DNA of 20,218 bases from Marine Group I thaumarchaeote (GCA_044358425.1 CP054849.1:556577-576794); one strand, 5' to 3'. Shown: positions 8,532 to 19,999, counted from the stretch's first letter. The notes: generated by a model from the letters alone, not told the origin. Made by a program: numbers and translations.

Positions 8532-8855
8532 TTAAGGGGTGACCTTCTCTAATTTTTCATGGATTTTGTCGTAATATCCATTTTGTTCCAATGCTGGAAC
8601 ATAAAATGTAGCAGATATTGTGTCACCCACTTTAGCTTGGCAGTTTTCTACAACTACTGAATGCCCTAGTGCTGATTCTCCTACACAGCCAATCTCAGTT
8701 ATTGCGATGACTTGTACATCCTCAGTAACTGATGTTGGGACAATGTTCCATGGTGTAATTGTAAGCACCAAGATTACTGCCGTAGCGATTGAAATTATTG
8801 CTAAGAATTTCAATACTGGTGGTTTTTGTTGTGTTGTCTGTTGCATTGTAACCAT
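8532..8855 (-). CDS. Membrane-anchored hypothetical protein with a small beta domain and two Cys
   Basis: N-terminal TM helix, beta-rich body; TATA box and operator motif upstream. Confidence 0.75.
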   Translation of the reverse strand: MVTMQQTTQQKPPVLKFLAIISIATAVILVLTITPWNIVPTSVTEDVQVIAITEIGCVGESALGHSVVVENCQAKVGDTISATFYVPALEQNGYYDKIHEKLEKVTP

Positions 8856-8902
8856 TTGTATTAGTACAACTTTTTATTTAAAATAGTGGTAAGTATTGAT
8901 TA

Positions 8903-8914
8903 TAGTGCTAAAAA
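8903..8914 (-). promoter_or_regulatory. Operator copy 1 (TAGTGCTAAaaa on +)
   Basis: Exact core, 48 nt from ATG 8855; TTAAATA on the minus strand at 8881-8875. Confidence 0.85.
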
Positions 8915-9041
8915 TCTGAACCATGCCAAAATTTTTTACAATTGTAACACTGTTTCTTCCAAATCACTAATCCCTCGGAATCCTTTTTCATTTCTATTAT
9001 GCCAAAATTTTTTGAACCACACGTGGGGCATCCGTCGTCAT

Positions 9042-9470
9042 TCAAAACTGAATTCCCTTCATGCGCTTTGAATAGTCATAATGAAATATTTTTTTTGGTG
9101 TAATTTCAATTGCAATTTCATTTTTTGAATGACTTAGTAGAAATTTTGATAATTTAGATTCTTTATCTCCTAGATATTTTTTAATTAAAATTTTCAATAT
9201 TTCTGGACCCTTGGATGGTATGATTTTAACAGTTCCTTCACCTCGTGAGCCTTTGTATGGGGGTTGATCTGCTGCTATTTCAAATCCACACGTGGGTTTA
9301 TTTTCCAAGTAATGAATAATTTTTGCAGTTTTTTGTGTTGCACAATAGATTTTTCCATTTATGTCAATATACCATAATGAAATAATTGATGGAGCTCCAT
9401 TGGGTTTGATGAATCCTATTCTAATTGGTATCTTTGTATCTGGGGCTAACTCTCTTTCTACGTATTGCAT
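9042..9470 (-). CDS. Pyridoxamine 5'-phosphate oxidase-like (FMN/F420 split-barrel) protein
   Basis: RIGFIKPNGAPSIISLWY...IYCATQKTAKIIHYLENKP...PYKG.RGEG...IEITPKKIFHYDY pattern; GAGGT SD-like element before the ATG. Confidence 0.8.
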   Translation of the reverse strand: MQYVERELAPDTKIPIRIGFIKPNGAPSIISLWYIDINGKIYCATQKTAKIIHYLENKPTCGFEIAADQPPYKGSRGEGTVKIIPSKGPEILKILIKKYLGDKESKLSKFLLSHSKNEIAIEITPKKIFHYDYSKRMKGIQF

Positions 9471-9539
9471 TTAATTACCTCGCTAAGCAACAGACACTTT
9501 AATTTTTTTTTGTATATGAATAATTTCTAATATTTCCTA

Positions 9540-9551
9540 TAGTGCTAACAA
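9540..9551. promoter_or_regulatory. Operator copy 2 (TAGTGCTAACAA), centred between divergent promoters
   Basis: About 20 nt from TTCATATA (minus, 9520) and from TTAAAATA (plus, 9571); 49 nt from ATG 9600. Confidence 0.85.
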
Positions 9552-9599
9552 TTTAGATTTCATGCTTTTGTTAAAATACTAATTTTTTAAGAAAATTGT

Positions 9600-10280
9600 A
9601 TGAAAAAATTATTTTTATTAGTTTTTGTTATAATGTTAATTTCTATATCTCCTGCATATGGTCATAAATTAATTAGCCATGATGACTCTCATCGTGATTT
9701 TGATTCTGCATTAGTAATACCTGATCATAAAATTTCATGGGCAATTTATGAGAATCTAGGCATGGAAGAATCCAAGTTTTATACTTTTGATGCAAAAAAA
9801 GGTGATTCGTTTTATGCAAGTATTGTAATTCCAAATCTTGAAGGATTGGAAAGATATTCTCCTTCATTAATTCTAATGAATGATGATTTGTATAAAGGAG
9901 ATGGACCTTCTGCAAATATAGAATCCAGTGTTCAAAAATTTCTTTATGAAGGAGATTATCCTGGAAATGAATTTTACGAACCTTTTGGTCAGGTGACTTA
10001 TTGGGAGAGACAGGAGGTTAATACAATTATTCCTGAAGATGGACAATATTTTATTTTAGTATTAGATGAGAAAAATCAAAGTGGAAAATATAGTTTAGCT
10101 ATTGGTACTATTGAGGATTTCTCTGGTGCTGATTTTTTTACTATACTACCTAAAGCTTGGTTTGATACAAGAATTTTTGTAAATGATTATGCTGGACTTG
10201 GTATTGGAATTTCCATACTTGTTGGAATTCCTGTCATGTTATCGTTAATAATTTTGAGAAATAAAATATTTAGAAGATAA
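9600..10280 (+). CDS. Secreted, C-terminally membrane-anchored hypothetical protein
   Basis: Signal peptide ending AYG, His-rich mature N-terminus HKLISHDDSH, C-terminal TM helix with a basic tail. Confidence 0.8.
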   Translation: MKKLFLLVFVIMLISISPAYGHKLISHDDSHRDFDSALVIPDHKISWAIYENLGMEESKFYTFDAKKGDSFYASIVIPNLEGLERYSPSLILMNDDLYKGDGPSANIESSVQKFLYEGDYPGNEFYEPFGQVTYWERQEVNTIIPEDGQYFILVLDEKNQSGKYSLAIGTIEDFSGADFFTILPKAWFDTRIFVNDYAGLGIGISILVGIPVMLSLIILRNKIFRR

Positions 10281-10307
10281 GAAATAATAAAATTATTTTA
10301 AAATATT

Positions 10308-10490
10308 CTATTTTTTCTTGCTTCTAGGTTTTGTTCTTAACACTGCTTTGCAACAAATACATCTGACATCTTCGGAATCTAGAAAAATACCACAAAATGT
10401 GCAACGCTTTTGTCCTATCTCATACCTGATTTTATTAGGTACTGATTCAGCTTCATGTCTTTTGCATATGTTTCTACAAGTTCTACCCAA
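10308..10490 (-). CDS. Small Cys-rich (zinc-finger-like) basic protein
   Basis: CxxxC, CxxC and CICC, then LRTKPR; TTG start overlaps the tfb stop by 8 nt. Confidence 0.75.
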   Translation of the reverse strand: MGRTCRNICKRHEAESVPNKIRYEIGQKRCTFCGIFLDSEDVRCICCKAVLRTKPRSKKK

Positions 10491-11394
10491 CTTTTACATC
10501 TCCTATCTTGTTGACAATTTCTTTTCTTCTTTCTCTTATGGTCACAGCACTAATTCCTGATATTTTGGATATTTTTAGCTGTGATACTTTTTCAGCATTT
10601 GTTGTTGCGGCTAGATGTATTGCAGCTGCTGCCATAGCCATTGGATTTTTACTTGTGGATACGTGCTTTTTTGCACACATATCAAGTATTTTGAAGCTAA
10701 GTCTTTGTGTTTTTTCTGACAAAGTTAATCCCTTTGCGATTCTGGTGACAAATTCTGATGGTGTGTATGACTCAGGTGATATGTCCATCTCTTTTGCAAG
10801 GAATCTATATGTTCTTTGTAGAACTTTTTTCTTAATGTTTGCTGCATCAGAAATATCTTGTAGTGTTCTAGGTGTATCTGTAATTCTACATGTTGCATAA
10901 ATTGTAGCAGATAACATAGCTGCTGTTGATCTTCCTGCAAGTATTTTTCTTGCTGCAATTTTTCTAAACAAATATGCACTTTCTTCTACTACTGATTCAG
11001 GCAGACCTAGCTTTGAACTTATTGCATCAAGTAAAGTGAATGCTTTTTGAAATGATTTTGATGTCACAGCTGAGCGACTGTTTCTGTCCCACATTCTTAG
11101 TCTGTAAAACATTCGTCTGTTTTCTACTGACAGTGATTTGCCTGTCACGTCCTTATCTTTAGCTTCAATTAATGTAGACAGTCCCATGTCTATCATCTTC
11201 AAAGATCTTTTTGCTCCAACTCTTGAATTATTTTGATAATCTGCTGAACTTCCTCCTGACATTTCAGCACCTAAATCAATAATTGGTTCTGATGATACTA
11301 TTCCGCAGTTACTACATGCAATCTCCCCAGTATGTATGTCTGTAACTATTTCATGTTTCTTACAATTTTTTTGATGTACTAATTCAGTTAACAT
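10483..11394 (-). CDS. tfb: Transcription initiation factor B (TFB paralogue)
   Basis: Zn ribbon IVTDIHTGEIACSNCGIV, GLST, RLRMW, cyclin repeats with GRS...IYATCR...PRTL and ISAVTIRER. Confidence 0.95.
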   Translation of the reverse strand: MLTELVHQKNCKKHEIVTDIHTGEIACSNCGIVSSEPIIDLGAEMSGGSSADYQNNSRVGAKRSLKMIDMGLSTLIEAKDKDVTGKSLSVENRRMFYRLRMWDRNSRSAVTSKSFQKAFTLLDAISSKLGLPESVVEESAYLFRKIAARKILAGRSTAAMLSATIYATCRITDTPRTLQDISDAANIKKKVLQRTYRFLAKEMDISPESYTPSEFVTRIAKGLTLSEKTQRLSFKILDMCAKKHVSTSKNPMAMAAAAIHLAATTNAEKVSQLKISKISGISAVTIRERRKEIVNKIGDVKVG

Positions 11395-11442
11395 GATAAC
11401 TTTATGCTTTCATTTTATATAACAAATCAAAAAATTTTTTAC

Positions 11443-11454
11443 TAGTGCTAATAT
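11443..11454 (-). promoter_or_regulatory. Operator copy 3 (tfb promoter)
   Basis: TAGTGCTAA at 11443-11451, 49 nt from ATG 11394; TTATATA on the minus strand at 11422-11416. Confidence 0.88.
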
Positions 11455-11505
11455 CTCTAGTCATTAAAAATTATTTTCTACCTTTACCACTAGGAAATTG
11501 TGTTT

Positions 11506-11517
11506 TAGTTAGCACTA
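11506..11517 (+). promoter_or_regulatory. Operator copy 4 (TAGTTAGCACTA)
   Basis: Full consensus, 49 nt before ATG 11566; variant TTACCACTA at 11484-11492. Confidence 0.88.
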
Positions 11518-11565
11518 TTTACAAATTATTTTTGTATTTTTATCCAATGAATTTAACAGAAATTT

Positions 11566-11928
11566 ATGCCACATATTGTGTTGGATCGACAAATCAACCT
11601 CTTTGATTTCTCAATTTTGTTTAAACCATTATTTCAAAAATCTCCATTAATCAAAATTCATAAAATGTATGTTGATTCTGAAGGCTCTAATGCATTATTT
11701 TCAACAGTTGTAATAGATGATTCTCATCATGAATTCTTTATTCAAGTAATGACAAGTGATGAAAGAACTACAATTAGATTGCTCCCTATAACTGATCCAA
11801 AAAAGACTGATGCTGTAAAACAATCGTTAGCAAATTTATGTTTAGAAATACAAAGATATTATCCTGATATGAGAGTTATAAAATCAAATTTATGGGACTA
11901 CTTGAAAATCCCTATAACAAATGAGTAA
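11566..11928 (+). CDS. Hypothetical protein
   Basis: 120-aa ORF overlapping the next gene by 8 nt; no family recognised. Confidence 0.75.
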   Translation: MPHIVLDRQINLFDFSILFKPLFQKSPLIKIHKMYVDSEGSNALFSTVVIDDSHHEFFIQVMTSDERTTIRLLPITDPKKTDAVKQSLANLCLEIQRYYPDMRVIKSNLWDYLKIPITNE

Positions 11929-12367
11929 ATTCAATCTTGTTAAAAAAAGTAATCTTCATCGTGATTTAATTTTTAAAATTAGTACAGATGTTGAAAACTT
12001 TCATAACGTTATGCCTGAATATTTCAAATCATTAAAAATTATTCAAAATTCCTCAAATGAAAAAATAGTTTTAGAATCTATAGATTTTCTTGGTAGAAAA
12101 ATAGAAATTAAAACAAAACATGTGATTATTCCACCAAATTTACATGAGGTATTCATTTTAAATGGTCCTGCAAAAGGTACTTCTTTTATTGAAAAATACG
12201 AATCTAACCCAACTGGTACTGATATTTCTATCTCTGTTGATTTGAAATTAAATGGATTTTTAAAATTAATTCCATTCCTGAAATTATTATTGTTTAAGAA
12301 AATGAATTCGGTAATGTCTGAGTTTATTGTATGTGCTGAATCCTATTCAAAGTCTGTTTCAAAATAG
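11921..12367 (+). CDS. SRPBCC / START-like (polyketide cyclase family) protein
   Basis: 148 aa; IFKISTDVENFHNVMPEYFKS, ILNGPAKG, GTDISISVDL and a C-terminal helix. Confidence 0.75.
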   Translation: MSKFNLVKKSNLHRDLIFKISTDVENFHNVMPEYFKSLKIIQNSSNEKIVLESIDFLGRKIEIKTKHVIIPPNLHEVFILNGPAKGTSFIEKYESNPTGTDISISVDLKLNGFLKLIPFLKLLLFKKMNSVMSEFIVCAESYSKSVSK

Positions 12368-12376
12368 TTAGCACTA
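12365..12376 (+). promoter_or_regulatory. Operator copy 5 (AATAGT-TAGC-ACTATT when extended)
   Basis: Full consensus with 6-bp perfect arms (12363-12378); TTAAATA at 12397; ATG at 12425, 49 nt away. Overlaps the upstream stop codon. Confidence 0.9.
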
Positions 12377-12424
12377 TTAAATTAAGTTAGTCTCTATTAA
12401 ATAGAAAAATTATTGATTTTAGCC

Positions 12425-13771
12425 ATGAGTCCTCCAACCATTGTTATTGGTGCAGGCGTGGGTGGCTTGACTACTGGTGCTATTTTGGCAGAAAAAGGTC
12501 ATAGTGTGATGATTTTAGAAAAATCTTCAAAACTAGGTGGAAGAACTGCTGCAATGGAATACAAAAACCATATTTTGGATAATGGTTTTCACATAATGCC
12601 TTTTTACAAAAAATCAGCAATTTTTACAATTATGAAGAATTTGGGAATTGAATCTCGTTTGAAGCTTGCAAAAGTTGATGATATTGCATTTTATGCTGAA
12701 ACTGGTTTTCATATATATCCAAAAGGAATGGGTGATCTGTTAAAATTATCATTAATCCCATTTAAGAGCAGAATTAGACTTCTAAAACTATTATTGCCTT
12801 TAGCATTTTCATCTATGGAAAAAACAGAATCCTGGGATGATGTACCTTTGACTAAAATTACACATGATTTAGATGCTGACACAAATGCATTTTTTGAAGC
12901 AGTATGTATGTTAGCTTTTGCAGATACAGCTGATCATATTTCTTTAGGTGAATTTGCCAGAACCATTATTAGAGCAAATCCGTTTAAAGGTGGAACAAGT
13001 GAATTTGCTTATCCAGATGGAGGTGGCTATGATTCCATCTGTAAGGTTCTTGGTGAATATATTTTAGAAAAAAATGGTGATATTCAGACAAAACAATCTG
13101 TAAAAAAAGTCATTGTAGAAAATTCTAAGGTTACTGGAGTTATTGTAAAGGATTCTTCAAATTCAGAAAAACTTATTCCAACAAATTCTGTAGTGATTTC
13201 CTATCCTGCTTATACTGCATTGAATCAACTATTTGATGAAGATGTAATTGACAGAAAATTTGTTCAAAAAATTGATAAATTGAATAAGACTACTTCTGTA
13301 GTTGAAGTTCATTTTGCATTAAATTCTCAAATTGATACTCGTCAGGTAGTTTTTCCTGTTGGTGATAACTATGTCACAAAAGGTATTTTTTTCATATCTA
13401 ATATCACTCCCTCTGTATCTCCTAAAGGTGAGCATTTGATCATTGCAGGAACTCCTGTATTGCCTTCTGAAACTGAGGATTCTGAAAAAATTAAAAGTAT
13501 TGTGAGTAAAATGAAACAAGAAATATCGTCAATCTACCCGAAATTTGATTCTTCATTATTGTGGGAACGTCCAATGGCCTGGAAATTAGTTGAATCTGTA
13601 GTAAAGGAACCTGGAAAAGTTTGGAAATCAAAAATGCCTCATCAGATACCTGGAATTGATGGCTTATTTTTTGTGGGTGATTCAACTATTAGTTATGGAA
13701 TTGGAACTGACTCTGCTGCACACAGTTCTATTTTGTGTACTCCAAAAATTGAATCTTTTTTAAATTCCTAG
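12425..13771 (+). CDS. FAD-dependent oxidoreductase, phytoene dehydrogenase / amine oxidase superfamily
   Basis: VIGAGVGGL...ILEKSSKLGGR...LDNGFH; YPDGG; C-terminal IDGLFFVGD. Start placed at ATG 12425. Substrate unknown. Confidence 0.88.
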   Translation: MSPPTIVIGAGVGGLTTGAILAEKGHSVMILEKSSKLGGRTAAMEYKNHILDNGFHIMPFYKKSAIFTIMKNLGIESRLKLAKVDDIAFYAETGFHIYPKGMGDLLKLSLIPFKSRIRLLKLLLPLAFSSMEKTESWDDVPLTKITHDLDADTNAFFEAVCMLAFADTADHISLGEFARTIIRANPFKGGTSEFAYPDGGGYDSICKVLGEYILEKNGDIQTKQSVKKVIVENSKVTGVIVKDSSNSEKLIPTNSVVISYPAYTALNQLFDEDVIDRKFVQKIDKLNKTTSVVEVHFALNSQIDTRQVVFPVGDNYVTKGIFFISNITPSVSPKGEHLIIAGTPVLPSETEDSEKIKSIVSKMKQEISSIYPKFDSSLLWERPMAWKLVESVVKEPGKVWKSKMPHQIPGIDGLFFVGDSTISYGIGTDSAAHSSILCTPKIESFLNS

Positions 13772-14622
13772 TTAGTTAATGGTATTTTTCTAATAATTTT
13801 TGGAATCTCTTCTAAACTCATATCGCCTACCACATTACCCTCAAATTTTGGTGGGTTGTCTTGTTGTAATGCATATCCTCCGATTAAAATTGGTGTTTTA
13901 CAATGTTCTCTAATTTTTTTTGCTAGTCTTTGTCCTGCAGATACGTTATCTTCAATTGTTATTGAAATTAAAATTACATCTGGTTTTTTCATATTGATAA
14001 ATTCGATAATTGAGTCTGTTGGAATGGATGTTCCCATATTGAAAACTTTGAAACCTTTTATTGTAAGATATGTTTCCAACACATCACATCCCATGTGGTG
14101 CTCCTCTCCAACTGGTACGCATAACATTACTTTCTTTTTATTTCCTGTACCTGACACTTGATCCATGATAATTTTTACTAAGGTTTGTGCTACATTACTG
14201 GCAACATGTTCTGTTGCAATTGCTAATTTACCATTTTCCCAGTCTGAACCTATTTTGCTCATTACAGGTCTTAGAATCTTGTCAAAAAAGTCTGGTACAT
14301 TAAATATGTCCACGTAATTTTTATAAATTTTAATACACTCATCCAGGTTACCATCTGTCAATTTTTTAAATAATTGTTGTTTTGATTTTTTTGTCGCATC
14401 TTCTCTTTTTTTTATGTCTTCTGGATTATATGATGCCAAAACTGATAGGATTTTGGGATCATTTCTGAATTCTTCTGGAATGTCATCTTTTATTACTTCT
14501 GATGCTTTTCCTAGATATTTGACAATCTCCTGTTTTGATGTGCTCTTTTTTGAATCCCAGACACTTTTTACTAAATAGAGATATTGATCTGATTTGACTT
14601 TTTTAGCCCTAATGTAGACCAT
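13768..14622 (-). CDS. Cobalamin-binding regulator, CarH/LitR-like sensor domain with an atypical N-terminal domain
   Basis: W-ENGKLAIAT-EH (Wx9EH), GEEHHMG (ExHxxG), Rossmann tail ISIT...ILIGG. Start reassigned to MVYIRAKK (14622) because a TATA box and the motif occupy 14643-14682. Confidence 0.88.
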   Translation of the reverse strand: MVYIRAKKVKSDQYLYLVKSVWDSKKSTSKQEIVKYLGKASEVIKDDIPEEFRNDPKILSVLASYNPEDIKKREDATKKSKQQLFKKLTDGNLDECIKIYKNYVDIFNVPDFFDKILRPVMSKIGSDWENGKLAIATEHVASNVAQTLVKIIMDQVSGTGNKKKVMLCVPVGEEHHMGCDVLETYLTIKGFKVFNMGTSIPTDSIIEFINMKKPDVILISITIEDNVSAGQRLAKKIREHCKTPILIGGYALQQDNPPKFEGNVVGDMSLEEIPKIIRKIPLTN

Positions 14623-14670
14623 TAAAATTCCTAATTTTTTCGATATATAACTAATGGTAATCATGACTAC

Positions 14671-14682
14671 TAGTGCCAATCT
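14671..14682 (-). promoter_or_regulatory. Operator copy 6 (one mismatch, TAGTGCCAA), promoter of the B12-binding regulator
   Basis: 49 nt from ATG 14622; TTATATAT on the minus strand at 14650-14643. Confidence 0.8.
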
Positions 14683-14696
14683 CTTCTAAATTTAAT

Positions 14697-14708
14697 TTCT
14701 TAGCACTA
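14697..14708 (+). promoter_or_regulatory. Operator copy 7
   Basis: TTAGCACTA at 14700-14708; TTAAATA at 14729; ATG at 14757, 49 nt away. Confidence 0.88.
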
Positions 14709-14756
14709 GTACGAACTTGTGTTTTCGGTTAAATATCATAAATCAAAAATATTTTC

Positions 14757-14954
14757 ATGGCAGGAACAGAAGAACAAGAATGGGCTAACCTTCTTGCAGA
14801 AATCTTTGACAAACTTACACAAAAACACGCCGCAATTACTTATGAGTTTGACAATCTAGAAATGGCTGGTAAGATTATGAAAGATAAGCAAGTTGTCCCA
14901 ACTGGTACAGTTTCCCTAAGTGGAAAACTAACCATTACAGCAAAAGAAAAATAG
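14757..14954 (+). CDS. Small hypothetical protein
   Basis: 65 aa, first gene of a tightly packed three-gene operon. Confidence 0.8.
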   Translation: MAGTEEQEWANLLAEIFDKLTQKHAAITYEFDNLEMAGKIMKDKQVVPTGTVSLSGKLTITAKEK

Positions 14955-14955
14955 A

Positions 14956-15333
14956 GTGTGGTTGACAATGAAAGATTTTGATCTACCCGCCAATTTTTTA
15001 TCTTATCTAGATAAAGGTAAATTAAGCATCACATGCAATGATGAACCTACGATTAATTTTCGTGTTGAAGGAAGTACAAAAATTATAGATGTAATTGATA
15101 TTCCAATTAAAATAAATAAAATGCCTGGATTTCTAAAACAGCTTTCTGAAGCAAAAGAACTTGCAAAAGATTTGGCAAAGAAAAAAACAACTATTGAAGT
15201 ACGTTTGAAAGGTGATACTGTATTGAAACTAGGTGAAAAAGCAAATCCAAAATTAGCAAAAATTGTAACACGAAGTAGTGATATTGAAATCACTGACATA
15301 AGAAAATTGAAAAAATTGAGTGATGTATTTTAA
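14956..15333 (+). CDS. Hypothetical basic protein (start may be ATG 14968)
   Basis: ORF fills the gap between its neighbours with 1-2 nt spacing. Confidence 0.75.
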   Translation: MWLTMKDFDLPANFLSYLDKGKLSITCNDEPTINFRVEGSTKIIDVIDIPIKINKMPGFLKQLSEAKELAKDLAKKKTTIEVRLKGDTVLKLGEKANPKLAKIVTRSSDIEITDIRKLKKLSDVF

Positions 15334-15335
15334 AA

Positions 15336-16763
15336 ATGTCTGAACTTTCTACACAAACTAAACCCTACGATATTTTAGTTACTGGTGCAAGTGGTTTTAT
15401 TGGAAAAAAACTACTTAATCAATTAACTAATTCTGGATTTACTGTAACTGCAATGTCCAGATCAAAATACCCTGATTCAGAGAAAATCAAGCGTGTACAG
15501 GCTGATGCATTTGATGTTGATTCTTTAACTAAAGCTACTGAGGGAATTACAACTGCATTTTACTTACTTCATTCTATGGAAGGCTCAAAAAAGGAATGGG
15601 GTGAATTTGCAAATAGGGAAAAACAGCAGGCTCAAAATTTTCTTAAAGCTGCAACTGCATCTGGCGTAAAGAGAATCATATATCTCGGTGGATTAGTCAA
15701 CGAAGGTCTAGAATTATCAAAACATATGAAAAGTAGGCATGATGTGGGCAAGATTTTGGCAAGTGGAAATATTCCTGTCACTGAATTAAGAGCATCTGTT
15801 ATTGTTGGAGCTGAAGGTGGTTCTTATGCCATGCTTAGATATCTTGTTGAAAGATTACCTTTGATGGTTTGTCCAAAATGGGTTAAATCACAAACACAAC
15901 CAATTGCAGTTGAAAATGTTGTGGATTATTTGATAGGTTCGATGAAAAATCCAGAAACTACAGGAAAAATTTTAGAAATTGGTGGACCTGATATCATGAC
16001 ATATGAACAACTAATGAGATTATACTCTTCCATTCTCAATAGAAATCTAACCGTAATTCAGATTCCATTTTTGACCCCTAGACTTTCTTCTTATTGGATT
16101 GATTTAGTTACTCCAGTTAAAGCCTCTCTAGCAAGACCTCTAGTTGATAGTTTAGTACATGATTCTGTAGTTAAAGATGATACAGCACAAAAATTGATTC
16201 CAATTCAATTGGCACACATGACTCAAGCAATTCAAACTGCTAGAGAAGAAGCAAAAGTTTTCAACTCCATTTCTAAATCAGAGGGAGAAAAAACTTCGTA
16301 TAAAATGAATCAACAAATTCTTCTAATTACTTTATGTGCCATGGCTTTCATTGGTACAACATACTATTGGTTGGATGATCGAAGTGATGTTTGGCAGATT
16401 ACTTGGATAGTTGGTTCCGTAATTTGGTATGCTTCAATTTTATTTGCTATTTCATTTGTGAGACAAAAAGCCAGGTTGGGTTATTTGATAGGTGGAATTT
16501 TGGCTTGGGTTACTCTGGCATTTTGGTTATTTGATAACTTTCATGTTGTATTTGAGCTCTCATTGGTCGCATCTGAACCTAGTTTGGAAATTACAATTAG
16601 AAATTTCATTGGTGCAGCAATTGCTGGATTGGCTATATTCTCCTCACATAATGTATTTCATAAAGTACGAGTTTACCAAGCCCGAGGAAAACCTGTATCT
16701 GAATCTGCCTCTTCAGAGGTGCCTGAAGGTGCTAGACCGGTTTATAATACTGACTTTTCATAA
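15336..16763 (+). CDS. YbjT-like atypical SDR / NAD(P)-dependent epimerase fused to a four-TM C-terminal domain
   Basis: ILVTGASGFIG, YLLHSM, IIYLGGL, LSKHMKSR, TQPIA, TPRLSSYW; about four hydrophobic helices after residue 325. Confidence 0.85.
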   Translation: MSELSTQTKPYDILVTGASGFIGKKLLNQLTNSGFTVTAMSRSKYPDSEKIKRVQADAFDVDSLTKATEGITTAFYLLHSMEGSKKEWGEFANREKQQAQNFLKAATASGVKRIIYLGGLVNEGLELSKHMKSRHDVGKILASGNIPVTELRASVIVGAEGGSYAMLRYLVERLPLMVCPKWVKSQTQPIAVENVVDYLIGSMKNPETTGKILEIGGPDIMTYEQLMRLYSSILNRNLTVIQIPFLTPRLSSYWIDLVTPVKASLARPLVDSLVHDSVVKDDTAQKLIPIQLAHMTQAIQTAREEAKVFNSISKSEGEKTSYKMNQQILLITLCAMAFIGTTYYWLDDRSDVWQITWIVGSVIWYASILFAISFVRQKARLGYLIGGILAWVTLAFWLFDNFHVVFELSLVASEPSLEITIRNFIGAAIAGLAIFSSHNVFHKVRVYQARGKPVSESASSEVPEGARPVYNTDFS

Positions 16764-16775
16764 TTGAATGATTTT

Positions 16776-16877
16776 TTAATTATTTCTACACTCAATACAT
16801 AATTTGGTATTTTTCATTATATTACATGCACAAATTTTATGACAATTTTCACATTGCAACATTCTCACACCGAACAT
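16776..16877 (-). CDS. Putative 33-aa Cys-rich microprotein
   Basis: Manual translation: MFGVRMLQCENCHKICACNIMKNTKLCIECRNN. TTATAAT on the minus strand 30 nt upstream. Confidence 0.55.
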   Translation of the reverse strand: MFGVRMLQCENCHKICACNIMKNTKLCIECRNN

Positions 16878-16977
16878 ATGAAATTTAATTTAATGAATTA
16901 ATTATAAGCATAGGTTTTATTCTAAGTTTTTATTCTAACTTTGTATTTATTCTATTAATATTTTCAAAATGATTTGT

Positions 16978-17499
16978 TTATTTTTGATTTTCTAAAATTT
17001 TGAATATATTTCCATTTGCTGGATTAGAATATAGTAGAAAGTATGTTTGTCCGGCAAGATATGTTTTATTAAATCTGAATACTATTGGATGAATTTCTGC
17101 AAGGATTTCTCCGACTGTGATTGTTTCATTTTTATAATTTTTTAATAAATCAAAAAATTTGTCTCTTTCTAGATGAGTAAACTCCTTGGAAAAAAAACCA
17201 AAAATATGCATTATTACGTTGCTATGTGTTTTGATTGTAGGTTTAAACTGTAAACATAAACTGAGATTTTTTTCATACTCTACTAACATTTCTGAAAATT
17301 TTACTTTTTTATTACTGGCCACAATCCTGCCTAATACTTTGAGTTCTTCTTGATTGTGAGCCATAATCAAAAACTTATTCATTGCTTGAAATTCAACTAA
17401 TTCCTTTATTTTGTTACTTTTTTTTACGTTTTGAAATCTTTCTAGAACAAATTCTTTGATTTCTTTTTGAGTTAACACTTTGTGATAGTTTTGCATCAT
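16978..17499 (-). CDS. YbgA family (DUF1722) protein, stand-alone
   Basis: NKFLIMAHNQ...LGRIVA...THSNVIMHIFGFFSK...YLAGQTYF matches the DUF1722 pattern as I recall it. Confidence 0.8.
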   Translation of the reverse strand: MMQNYHKVLTQKEIKEFVLERFQNVKKSNKIKELVEFQAMNKFLIMAHNQEELKVLGRIVASNKKVKFSEMLVEYEKNLSLCLQFKPTIKTHSNVIMHIFGFFSKEFTHLERDKFFDLLKNYKNETITVGEILAEIHPIVFRFNKTYLAGQTYFLLYSNPANGNIFKILENQK

Positions 17500-17580
17500 G
17501 ATTTCATCCTTTTATTTCCGTAGATTGACATACACGATGATCGATTATAATTTGCATATAAACAACTCCTAGTCGATTAG

Positions 17581-17592
17581 TTGTTAGCACTA
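17581..17592. promoter_or_regulatory. Operator copy 8 (TTGTTAGCACTA)
   Basis: About 20 nt from minus-strand TTTATATG (17562-17555) leading to the ybgA-like gene. Confidence 0.83.
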
Positions 17593-17604
17593 TATTTTTT
17601 GAAA

Positions 17605-17616
17605 ATATTAGCACTA
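17605..17616 (+). promoter_or_regulatory. Operator copy 9
   Basis: TTAGCACTA at 17608-17616; TTAAATA at 17637; ATG at 17666, 50 nt away. Confidence 0.88.
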
Positions 17617-17665
17617 GAAAATGATTTGGCACCATTTTAAATATAATTAGTGAAATTTGTTTATA

Positions 17666-18613
17666 ATGAAAACTCTCATGACTGCAATTTCAACAATTGC
17701 CGTATTGCTGCTTGTTGGCTCAAGTGTATCATCAGTTTACGCTGATGTTCCAGCTTGGGTTAAGAACAATGCAGGCTGGTGGGCAGAAGGAACGATTGAT
17801 GACGATTCATTTGTTCAAGGAATTCAATTCTTGATCAAAGAAAAAATCATGGAAATTCCTCCAACCACACAAGGAGTAAGTTCTAGTAATGAAATCCCAT
17901 CCTGGATTAAAAACAATGCAGGCTGGTGGGCAGAAGGAACGATTGATGACGATTCATTTGTTCAAGGAATTCAATTCTTGATCAAAGAAGGAATCATGAA
18001 AGTATTACCTGAGCAAGCTAGTGATGTAGCAAAAGCTGCTACTGAAAAGGCATTTGCTAAAAAGGAACAAAAATCCATATCATCAAGCGATGACCCTGTA
18101 ATTGCTTCTCTTGAAGCTGAATTAGAGAAATGTTCAGAAATAGTCAAAGCATACAAGAGACTTGATTGTGAAAAACCAATTAAACAAGAAATTCTTGTTC
18201 ATACATACAAAACTGGCGCTGAATTAATGCAAGTAGGACCAATTAATTATTATTGGTTTGGTGTAAATTCTGAGGGTAATAGCTTTGAAATTAGTCCTAC
18301 AGGACAACCAATTTTGAATATCAGAATGTTGGCCGATAACACTTCTTCAGATATTGTTAGTTTGAATTGTACAAGTCCTTCAATTTGTAACTATGATGTT
18401 TGGGACGGTTCAAAATCCTTCAAATATTCTGGAATGGACTTTACTAGTGGACAAATCAATCTAAACCCTGGAACTGCTAAGGAGTTCAATATTTTGTTTG
18501 GTCCAAATATTGGATATGGTGGAACTGAATTTGAATATGATCCTTCAAAGACATATACTTTCAGAATCAATGAACCATTTGGTAGTATGGATGTTCACCT
18601 AGACTTAGAATAA
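17666..18613 (+). CDS. Secreted protein with two 'PxWxKNNAGWW' modules and a Cys-containing C-terminal beta domain
   Basis: Signal peptide ending VYA; two modules; C-terminal domain paralogous to the next gene. Confidence 0.85.
   Translation: MKTLMTAISTIAVLLLVGSSVSSVYADVPAWVKNNAGWWAEGTIDDDSFVQGIQFLIKEKIMEIPPTTQGVSSSNEIPSWIKNNAGWWAEGTIDDDSFVQGIQFLIKEGIMKVLPEQASDVAKAATEKAFAKKEQKSISSSDDPVIASLEAELEKCSEIVKAYKRLDCEKPIKQEILVHTYKTGAELMQVGPINYYWFGVNSEGNSFEISPTGQPILNIRMLADNTSSDIVSLNCTSPSICNYDVWDGSKSFKYSGMDFTSGQINLNPGTAKEFNILFGPNIGYGGTEFEYDPSKTYTFRINEPFGSMDVHLDLE
17765..17989 (+). repeat. Exact 78-bp intragenic direct repeat (17765-17842 and 17912-17989)
   Basis: aacaatgcaggctggtgggcagaaggaacg...ttgatcaaagaa occurs twice, period 147. 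Confidence 0.9.
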
Positions 18614-18616
18614 GAC

Positions 18617-18658
18617 TTCTTTTTCTTATTTTTATTTTATTTTTATTTTATTTTTATT
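18617..18658 (+). terminator. Oligo-T archaeal terminator-like tract, (T4-5A)n
   Basis: Immediately follows the stop at 18613. Confidence 0.55.
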
Positions 18659-18670
18659 TAGTTAGCACTA
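18659..18670 (+). promoter_or_regulatory. Operator copy 10 (TAGTTAGCACTA)
   Basis: Full consensus; TTATATA at 18691; ATG at 18719, 49 nt away. Confidence 0.9.
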
Positions 18671-18718: not shown

Positions 18719-19999
18719 ATGAATCTTTTATTTTTGATCATCCCTTTACTCGTTTTTTCAATTCCAATGGTTTTTGCTGAATCCTCTAACGTTGGTACTA
18801 TGTATTGGAAGCAAGAAATCATTTCACCAAATTCGTTTGTTGATATCTATGTAAATGATAATGATATGAATAAAAAAGAATATCCAAATTTTGCTGATAA
18901 ATTTATGATATCTATATGGTCTGATTCTTCTCCAAATGGTCTTGAAATCCAAGTTGTAGAGACAGGAGTTTACAGTGGTATTTTCAAAGGTCGTGTGTTT
19001 GTTGCTGATTCTGGTGAGACCGTAAAAAATAGACTGGTTTCAATGCCTGGTGATACTGTATATGCAAAATATGTTGATTTTACAATGCCAGATGGCTCGA
19101 CATCTGAAATATTCTCAGCTGCAGTTGTAAAAATATCTGGTCAAAATATGCAGCCATTACTTGACAATATAGATTCAAAATACCGCATGTCTTCATCTAT
19201 TGAAAAAGTTCCATCATGGATTAAAAATAATGCAGGCTGGTGGGCAAATGATGACATTGATGATGATGCTTTCATTCAAGGTATTCAGTTTTTAATTAAA
19301 GAAAAGATTCTTGAAATAAATGAAACCTCATCTACAGAAAAAAGTGATAAAATTCCTGCTTGGGTAAAAAATAATGCAGGCTGGTGGGCAGAAGGCCAAA
19401 TCACTGAATCTGATTTTCTTAGTGGGATTACACATCTTGTAAAAACTGGAATAATTTCTGTTAGTGATGATTCTGTTGAATTAGTTTCTGATGATGTCGA
19501 TCCTTTACTGGCTGAATGTCAATCGATTAAATCTACATACAAGCGACTAAATTGTGAAAAGGAAATAAAACAAAATCTTGAATTTATAGAATTTAAAAAA
19601 TCTTCAAATGAATACGGTGTAGGTCCAATCACTTACTATTATCCTGGAATTGGAAATTTTGGAAATGAGTTTGAAATCAGTTCTTCTGGTCAAGCTATGT
19701 TGAGATTAAGAATTTTAGCTGAAAATACCGGCAATGAAGTAATTTCATTAAAGTGTACAGGTCCATCTATCTGTAGTTATGATGTTTGGGATGGTTCAAA
19801 GGCATTCAAATATGCTGGCATGGATTTTGTGTCTGGTCAAATCCCAATAAATCCTGGAACCTCTGTTATTTTTAACATGATGTTTGGTCCGAATATTGGA
19901 TATGGTGGAAATCAATTTGAATATGATTCTTCAAAGAATTATACTTTTAGAGTTAATGAAAACTTTGGAAGCATTGAAATTCCATTAAAAATTGAATGA
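18719..19999 (+). CDS. Secreted protein with an S-layer-type Ig-like domain, two NNAGWW modules and the shared C-terminal domain
   Basis: Signal peptide ending VFA; VNDNDMN...ETGVYSGIFKG...GDTVYAKYVD. Start reassigned to ATG 18719. Confidence 0.85.
   Translation: MNLLFLIIPLLVFSIPMVFAESSNVGTMYWKQEIISPNSFVDIYVNDNDMNKKEYPNFADKFMISIWSDSSPNGLEIQVVETGVYSGIFKGRVFVADSGETVKNRLVSMPGDTVYAKYVDFTMPDGSTSEIFSAAVVKISGQNMQPLLDNIDSKYRMSSSIEKVPSWIKNNAGWWANDDIDDDAFIQGIQFLIKEKILEINETSSTEKSDKIPAWVKNNAGWWAEGQITESDFLSGITHLVKTGIISVSDDSVELVSDDVDPLLAECQSIKSTYKRLNCEKEIKQNLEFIEFKKSSNEYGVGPITYYYPGIGNFGNEFEISSSGQAMLRLRILAENTGNEVISLKCTGPSICSYDVWDGSKAFKYAGMDFVSGQIPINPGTSVIFNMMFGPNIGYGGNQFEYDSSKNYTFRVNENFGSIEIPLKIE

Follow-up and report, generated by a model that had tools for sequence, protein, structure and literature searches.

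A short, oriented DNA motif recurs at a fixed distance from the TATA box and start codon of a set of genes in a 20,218-nt stretch of a Marine Group I thaumarchaeote genome (GCA_044358425.1; G000:C1:556577-576794, 20.2 kb, hereafter the window). Analysis of the window, of its genome (G000; 1.36 Mb in a single contig, 15% masked as N, encoding an archaeal AmoA) and of 121 genomes, all belonging to the window's family, indicated that this motif is almost certainly a real, conserved operator at fixed promoter geometry. We lean towards the view that it is the operator of a B12-photoreceptor repressor controlling a conserved light/photo-oxidative-stress regulon in Nitrosopumilus-type ammonia-oxidising archaea. 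The candidate regulator, itself encoded in the window, is referred to below as the B12 protein.

Motif, promoter geometry and conservation

The sequence TTAGCACTA occurred nine times in the window, at the positions listed in Table 1 and nowhere else in it, versus 0.16 copies expected from shuffles, and none of 100 shuffles reached nine; a variant, TAGTGCCAA, lay at 14671-14679. These ten positions agreed with those given in an earlier, sequence-only reading of the window. G000 as a whole contained 25 exact copies of TTAGCACTA, nine of which fell within 10 kb. Unique sites from G000 and from 18 fetched island loci of 15 other genomes were pooled into a 75-site matrix, and the motif was defined as an oriented 10-mer, TT(A/G)GCACTA(G/T), with the TTAG form at nine of the ten window sites. 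Position 10, which was unused for selection, read G in 56 and T in 19 of the 75 sites and was never A or C. The sequence-only reading had described a TAGT-N4-ACTA pseudo-palindrome. That 12-mer was present at only three of the ten window sites, and the four bases upstream of the core were merely A-rich, without conservation, across the 75 sites; the palindrome was therefore rejected.

Eight window promoters, named here by their start codons (8855, 11394, 11566, 12425, 14622, 14757, 17666, and 18719), carried the motif in the same orientation with its end 48-50 nt before the ATG. In seven of them an AWATA core started 22-23 nt after the motif and ended 19-22 nt before the ATG, the exception being the 11566 promoter, in which the TATA box is weak and the motif-to-ATG distance is 49 nt. 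The 48-50-nt spacing proposed by the sequence-only reading thus held for these eight promoters; two others that it had included, 9600 and 17531, have the motif in the opposite orientation, and 17531 failed as a gene start, since its ATG is out of frame with the DUF1722 open reading frame (ORF, 16978-17499) and opens an 11-codon ORF. The 9470 gene had rightly been singled out as an exception, with 70 nt to the ATG, a GAGGT 7 nt before the ATG, and the motif-to-TATA spacing kept. Among the start codons that the same reading had corrected, 14622 coincides with MVYIRAKK, the conserved beginning of 30 orthologues, and 12425, 17666, and 18719 fit the same geometry.

The same register was found outside the window. 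Among 143 motif occurrences in G000 and the 18 island loci, 80 lay in forward orientation 21-24 nt before AWATA-N19-22-ATG (22 nt, n = 49; 23 nt, n = 23; 21 nt, n = 4; 24 nt, n = 4), versus five in reverse orientation with a comparable gap, so that the motif is not scattered regardless of promoter position. All five reverse sites preceded orthologues of the 9600 gene, an arrangement that recurs in four loci besides the window, and the divergent promoter pair itself is therefore conserved.

Raw whole-genome counts of TTRGCACTAK were noisy, with motif-to-control ratios of 2.08 where the B12-protein gene was present and 1.39 where it was absent, and position-aware patterns were used instead. The strict pattern, TTRGCACTA-N21-23-AWATA-N19-22-ATG, gave 141 matches in 41 of the 121 genomes, compared with three for the control, which was the pattern read backwards; the pattern itself fixes the end of the AWATA core at 19-22 nt before the ATG in these 141 strict sites. 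The geometry is thus shared with relatives of the window's genome. The 11566 promoter fails the strict pattern because its TATA box is weak. A looser pattern, motif-N47-49-ATG, left the trend in the 121 genomes unchanged and was noisier.

Alignment of the 75 sites revealed a second element downstream of the motif. Positions 20-29 read TTAnCAYTAG, which repeats the 10-mer directly, in degenerate form and with a period of 19 bp, and TTAAATA follows immediately. Standing directly before the TATA box, this proximal copy occupies the place of the transcription factor B (TFB) recognition element (BRE). Within the window, one-mismatch copies 19 bp downstream of the main copy abut the TATA box at promoters 8855, 14622, and 17666, and in close orthologues of the B12-protein promoter TTAGCATTA stands directly before GTTAAATA or GTTATATA. 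Two other copies, a one-mismatch copy at 11484 and an extra copy at 17584, lie 24-25 bp upstream of the main copy.

Because the ATG follows the TATA core by about 21 nt, the transcripts of motif-bearing promoters are probably leaderless. Their layout is that of archaeal leaderless genes (TATA box about 24-30 nt before the start codon, no Shine-Dalgarno sequence), with a motif-to-TATA gap of 22-23 nt in 72 of the 80 sites, and throughout G000 TATA-like hexamers peak at -30 to -27 from ATGs, with 57 counts over four positions versus about 4-5 per position elsewhere. Twenty-four RNA runs cover the stretch as assembled Logan contigs, which cannot show transcript starts; in four runs no listed contig reaches upstream of the predicted ATGs 11394, 12425, 14757, and 17666. 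One contig with a loose end at 17665, adjoining ATG 17666, and another with an adapter at 14768 are a weak hint at most.

Candidate regulator and its co-occurrence with the motif

Domain searches of the 284-aa B12 protein identified Pfam B12-binding and B12-binding_2, and its best NCBIfam match was CarH, below that model's cut-off. A section of PMC8156234 defines CarH homologues by two motifs, Wx9EH and ExHx2Gx41SxV/Tx22-27GG, the latter containing the lower axial His. Both are present here: W128-ENGKLAIAT-E138-H139, in which each of W128, E138, and H139 reaches at least 90% conservation among 25 sequences, and E173-E-H175-H-M-G178 ... S220-I-T222 ... G248-G249, in which H175, S220, T222, G248, and G249 are invariant in the same set. 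Both were conserved in 24 of the 25 aligned sequences, the exception being a second G000 paralog (815950-816813). The AlphaFold2 model of the protein (predicted local distance difference test score, 88) contains a four-helix bundle along with a Rossmann fold, and its top Foldseek matches were all B12 photoreceptors (photocobilin 8j2w, TtCarH 5c8d/5c8e, and LitR 3whp). PDB profile and sequence searches agreed with Foldseek in placing B12 photoreceptors first. A complex prediction with two copies of residues 78-284 scored 0.00 and gave no verdict.

The second paralog is encoded on the minus strand (L031:9951-10814) and shows 34% identity to the B12 protein; it keeps the N-terminal domain and the lower-ligand His and lacks Wx9EH. 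No motif precedes it, and it lies beside a photolyase cluster and a MEDS-domain gene (816983). It parallels the B12-independent CarA of myxobacteria.

Residues 1-60 are the most conserved part of the B12 protein, with 23 invariant columns out of 70, and were predicted by AlphaFold2 to form three long beta strands (2-9, 12-23, and 28-39), not a winged helix. Searches of residues 1-83 found no MerR or other Pfam family, with one chance-level match at E <= 10, and in an ESM Atlas feature search with the N-terminal domain no score exceeded 0.78, which is short of the useful range. Searched as a profile, the domain matched 407 clusters among 1.84 billion representatives, most of which were about 280-300 aa long, like the B12 protein, or fragments. 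Ten proteins of other lengths carrying the domain were compared with Pfam, and four gave a match, one to a DDE transposase, two to HNH nucleases, and one to an AbiEii nucleotidyltransferase. In these four (P0134, P0129, P0123, and P0132) the beta-sheet domain sits at the N-terminus. Such company suits a nucleic-acid-targeting domain; it looks like a mobile nucleic-acid-binding module, without a family name so far, and we infer a DNA-binding role for it in the B12 protein.

Orthologues of the B12 protein (E <= 1e-10) were detected in 54 of the 121 genomes, or in 53 after exclusion of a fragment in G038. At least one strict site was present in 37 of the 53 genomes with an orthologue (136 sites), compared with four of the 68 without one (5 sites). 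Three genomes flagged as unpublished (G077, G092, and G093) are counted in every 121-genome tally, and all three lack both the sensor orthologue and a strict site; they bear on no other result. The four site-bearing genomes without an orthologue were G038, in which the fragment lies 2.5 kb from the site, G009 (72% complete), G022, and G091. In G038, which belongs to the same genus as G000, the fragment comprises 88 residues (G038:C1:1500069-1500332) and a perfect two-copy operator (1502815-1502875) precedes the 17666 orthologue (L070); this looks like a recently decayed island. Two other genomes, G094 and G109, were considered as exceptions and discarded: each had five loose-pattern matches, none with a TATA box, which look coding, and no strict match.

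The motif also precedes the gene of the B12 protein itself. In 21 of 30 loci the orthologue had it at an unchanged distance from its start, and two more had it there with one or two mismatches. At the remaining seven, another ORF stands immediately ahead of the B12-protein gene; four of these loci (L019-L022) were checked, and motifs were present about 1.2 kb upstream. In some genera (loci L018-L022, L024, and L030), the preceding ORF ends in a zinc-ribbon-like CPCCK...LRTKPRGKR tail, and the position of the B12-protein gene behind it suggests an operon variant. Overall, the B12 protein is probably the binder of the motif.

Proposed mechanism and alternative explanations

In archaea, the BRE is the element immediately upstream of the TATA box, and occupation of the two is a common mode of action of repressors. 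In the regulated promoters, the distal copy, which is the strong one, stands at about -57 to -48 relative to the ATG and is usually joined by a weaker direct-repeat copy 19 bp downstream, at the BRE position directly before the TATA box, with the ATG about 21 nt after the TATA core. The most likely binder is the B12 protein, in which a novel, putatively DNA-binding beta-sheet domain is joined to an adenosylcobalamin photoreceptor module of the CarH type. If it acts as CarH does, an oligomer with B12 bound would sit on the two copies in the dark and bar TFB and the TATA-binding protein (TBP) from the BRE and TATA box; in the light, the cofactor would be photolysed and the oligomer broken. This would free the promoters of the photolyase, DUF1722, and CrtI-like oxidase genes, the short-chain dehydrogenase/reductase (SDR) operon, the genes of the TFB paralog and secreted proteins, and the sensor gene itself. 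CarH tetramers are described in a section of PMC8156234 as binding, in the dark, to tandem direct repeats that overlap the promoter and as coming apart in the light. A strong distal and a weak BRE-overlapping copy, autoregulatory placement, and photoprotective targets together fit cooperative dark-state repression relieved by light, to which we give an even chance. The scheme of B12-based light sensing in which a novel beta-sheet plus CarH-type repressor gates a photoprotection regulon, with a second tier acting via the TFB paralog, seems to us just as finely balanced.

Several observations weigh against this proposal. G091, which is 99% complete in 120 contigs, has two good sites and a photolyase and no detectable B12-protein orthologue, G022 has one site and no orthologue, and a search of both genomes with the N-terminal-domain profile found nothing. 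Sixteen of the 53 orthologue-bearing genomes have no strict site, at least some of them having a TTG start or a one-base variant of the motif. Genomes of the same genus without the gene (G013, G060, and G079) are also without the SDR gene and a full-length 17666 orthologue; as the co-occurrence is island-wide, the statistic cannot separate the B12 protein from other island genes, and the related genomes in this count are not independent samples. For the N-terminal domain, Foldseek against the PDB found no structural relative at E <= 0.001 (E > 0.6), and the best match in a wide VIA-align search, to small ribosomal proteins, had a Z of 5.0. In the photoreceptor module, the residue adjoining the Trp is Glu; in TtCarH it is a His that serves as upper ligand once photolysis has taken place. 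The window promoters 11394, 11566, and 14757 show no clear proximal copy, so BRE occlusion cannot explain these fully, and -57 to -48 is also where archaeal activators bind.

An alternative keeps the same element and regulon and takes the distal copy as an upstream activating site, whose bound factor, be it the B12 protein or a different one, would recruit TFB/TBP and switch the genes on. It accommodates the promoters without a recognisable proximal copy, and the best-conserved copy does lie about 20 bp upstream of the TATA box without overlapping it; archaeal activators, Ptr2 and TFB-RF1 among them, work from a position immediately upstream of the BRE. Against this, the second half-site at the BRE position is informative across the 75 sites, and the known B12 photoreceptor regulators of this module type, as a section of PMC8156234 presents them, are dark-state repressors that are off the DNA in the light. 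We regard activation as unlikely, yet as a serious rival.

It is quite improbable that another protein, such as the island TFB paralog or a different regulator, binds the motif and that the B12 protein is only a regulated member or a non-DNA-binding partner. The island-wide co-occurrence would allow it, the N-terminal domain matches no known DNA-binding fold, the proximal copy lies exactly where TFB reads the BRE, and G091 and G009 have sites with an adjoining island-type TFB and no B12-protein orthologue. However, a close orthologue of the island TFB (at least 47% identity) was found in only 14 of the 41 strict-site genomes, compared with 37 of the 41 for the B12 protein, which argues against TFB as the binder. 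TFB is, moreover, established as reading the BRE beside the TATA box and not a site 20 bp upstream, and the N-terminal domain is the most conserved part of the B12 protein, just as the motif is conserved. Finally, it is scarcely credible that the copies lack a function and were left behind, for example, by a mobile element or by promoter duplication, or that they belong to an RNA element: although the sites cluster in one 10-kb island, their flanks show no relationship, the 10-mer and its register to TATA and ATG being all that is kept, the motif is retained in many genera before orthologous genes whose proteins are as little as 45% identical, and it lies upstream of the predicted transcript starts in a window in which an Rfam scan matched no family.

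Regulon content, known systems and significance

The sites and genes are summarised in Table 1. In the fetched islands, strict sites were kept before genes of the 17666-type protein at 12 loci, the B12 protein at seven, the CrtI-like oxidase at six, a 65-aa protein (the first gene of the 14757 operon) at six, and a 122-aa protein at four. The 17666 type is the most widely conserved regulon member, with 13 site-bearing genes at the 12 loci when the 18719 paralog is included. Counted by gene, the 18 fetched loci contained the B12 protein in 14, SDR in 13, TFB in 11, and DUF1722 in 11.

Table 1. Motif copies, genes of the proposed regulon, and candidate binder; positions refer to the window unless G000 is named
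Feature	Position	Strand	Remark
Distal operator copy TTAGCACTA, gene 8532-8855	8903..8911	-	exact; ends 48 nt before ATG 8855; strict pattern passed
Proximal degenerate copy TTACCACTA, abuts TATA of 8855 promoter	8884..8892	-	one mismatch; 19 bp downstream of distal copy; fits second half-site of the 75 sites
Operator copy common to divergent 9470 (forward, 70 nt, leadered, Shine-Dalgarno-like GAGGT) and 9600 (reverse)	9540..9548	-	exact
Distal operator copy, TFB paralog gene 10483-11394	11443..11451	-	exact; strict pattern passed
Extra near-copy TTACCACTA, 25 nt upstream of 11509 site	11484..11492	+	one-mismatch match
Distal operator copy, operon 11566-11928 / 11921-12367	11509..11517	+	exact; 49 nt to ATG; fails strict pattern
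Distal operator copy, CrtI-like FAD amine-oxidase gene 12425-13771	12368..12376	+	exact; strict pattern passed
Distal operator copy TTGGCACTA, B12-photoreceptor-like gene	14671..14679	-	strict pattern passed; same position filled in 21/30 orthologous loci
Proximal degenerate copy TTACCATTA, abuts TATA of 14622 promoter	14652..14660	-	promoter alignment
Distal operator copy, operon 14757-14954 / 14968-15333 / 15336-16763 (SDR)	14700..14708	+	exact; strict pattern passed
Additional copy, 24 nt upstream of 17608 copy	17584..17592	+	exact
Distal operator copy, secreted-protein gene 17666-18613	17608..17616	+	exact; strict pattern passed
Proximal degenerate copy TTGGCACCA, abuts TATA of 17666 promoter	17626..17634	+	promoter alignment
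Distal operator copy, gene 18719-19999 (17666 paralog)	18662..18670	+	exact; strict pattern passed
Candidate binder, B12 protein (284 aa)	13768..14622	-	residues 1-60, predicted beta-sheet domain; about 80-284, CarH-type B12-binding module
TFB (TFIIB) paralog	10483..11394	-	Pfam TFIIB 3.6e-33
CrtI-like FAD amine oxidase	12425-13771	+	Pfam and NCBIfam matches
Operon ending in NmrA/SDR protein with membrane tail	14757-16763	+	motif before first gene
Two secreted paralogs	17666-18613, 18719-19999	+	motif before each
Small proteins	genes at 8855, 9470, 11566, 11921		Pfam/NCBIfam scans give no function
DUF1722 (YbgA-like) gene, between two sites	16978..17499	-	Pfam DUF1722 1.6e-30
DUF523-DUF1722 gene	G000 609925		motif-to-ATG distance 49
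186-aa gene, then DNA photolyase	G000 811919/812498		photolyase PF03441 7e-82; motif-to-ATG distance 49
Paralogous 183-aa gene, then 450-aa protein	G000 813909/814572		forward site
Genes for 133-aa and 122-aa proteins	G000		forward sites

Within the window, the 9470 gene (9042-9470, minus strand), the only leadered member, matched F420-dependent PPOX-class oxidoreductases only weakly (TIGR03618, 7.8e-5), well short of the cut-off. The 11-codon ORF at 17496-17531 (minus strand) encodes MSIYGNKRMKS, and its TGA overlaps the ATG of the DUF1722 gene (ATGA); it may be a leaderless upstream ORF with termination-reinitiation coupling. The 17584 copy may also serve this divergent DUF1722 gene in reverse orientation, an assignment without support from the reading frame. 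The 17666 and 18719 paralogs share a repeated WIKNNAGWWAEG...FxxGIQFLI unit, with 5-9 matching places per genome in genomes of the same genus, and RNA contigs from four metatranscriptomes showed very high word depth over 17.8-18.5 kb. An AT-rich tandem run of 'ttttatttta' units (18613-18666) lies directly upstream of the 18662 site.

Forward sites of G000 outside the window have motif-to-ATG distances of 49-51 nt. The photolyase cluster (G000:C1:811919-815924; L031:5920-9925) contains two paralogs of about 185 aa, each with a TTGGCACTA site and each preceding a protein of about 450 aa, one of which is the photolyase; the TTGG variant is found at all three sites of the cluster. For the cluster's 450-aa and 186-aa proteins, neither Pfam nor the PDB gave a sequence match. 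A photolyase was found in 14 of the 121 genomes, and 11 of the 13 besides G000 also have a B12-protein orthologue. Its gene adjoins or shares an operon with the B12-protein gene in G020, G047, G066, G087, and G102 and lies about 5 kb away in G111, and of 15 photolyase loci, four have the motif ahead of the operon with the photolyase (L034, L037, L042, and L043, with a distance of 49 in L043). Photolyase genes are treated as markers of surface-adapted lineages in sections of PMC4839502 and PMC9239080 in which no regulator is mentioned.

Comparison with CarH/LitR (TtCarH 5c8d/5c8e; LitR 3whp) showed shared features in the protein and a possible parallel in the DNA. The B12 protein has the C-terminal four-helix bundle and Rossmann fold with both defining motifs, and the putative operator, if bound by it, would match theirs in having a copy before the regulator's own gene, direct-repeat copies, a proximal copy at the core promoter, and photoprotective targets (CrtI-like oxidase and photolyase). 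In contrast to CarH/LitR, the MerR winged helix is replaced by a three-stranded beta-sheet domain without a Pfam or PDB match, the promoter is an archaeal TATA/BRE promoter, the repeat period is 19 bp and not the 11 bp of CarH, and no His stands next to the Trp; the likeness is known here from sequence and model. Photocobilin and stand-alone B12 modules (8j2w, 8j2x, 8j2y, and 8jbs) were the best sequence and fold matches to residues 80-255, whereas photocobilin-type proteins carry other output domains (bilin-binding, GGDEF, or MerR), none with a beta-sheet N-terminal domain.

Two further systems offer partial parallels. The Bat regulon of Halobacterium (bop, brp, and crtB1) is archaeal and light/oxygen-responsive, with a conserved upstream activating sequence before the TATA box of several promoters, those of carotenoid genes included; its regulator family (GAF/PAS/HTH), motif, and phylum differ from those described here. 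Bacterial light or singlet-oxygen regulons under LitR or sigmaE-ChrR include phr-ybgA (DUF1722), SDR, and FAD amine-oxidase genes. Their repertoire resembles the present one in photolyase, DUF523/DUF1722, SDR, and CrtI-like amine oxidase, whereas control there is by a sigma factor or MerR protein and here by an archaeal promoter element. A literature search, with supplementary tables outside its reach, found nothing on the motif, on an archaeal CarH-like or B12 photoreceptor regulator, or on mapped Nitrosopumilus transcript starts; papers matching the 9-mer were on unrelated subjects and contained it in primers.

Ammonia-oxidising archaea are among the most abundant microbes of the ocean, are inhibited by light, and are major producers of cobalamin; to our knowledge, it is not known how they perceive and respond to light. 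If the proposal is true, the B12 protein would be the first transcription factor of Archaea to act as a B12-based photoreceptor, and the way in which ammonia oxidisers deal with light in the surface ocean would become accessible at the molecular level. The CarH principle would extend to Archaea and to a new DNA-binding fold, and the protein would provide a compact light-switchable DNA-binding module. The geometry of the motif can also serve as a rule by which start codons are corrected and promoters predicted in these genomes. With a defined operator, a regulon, and a candidate B12 photoreceptor, the question of light sensing in these archaea becomes directly testable.

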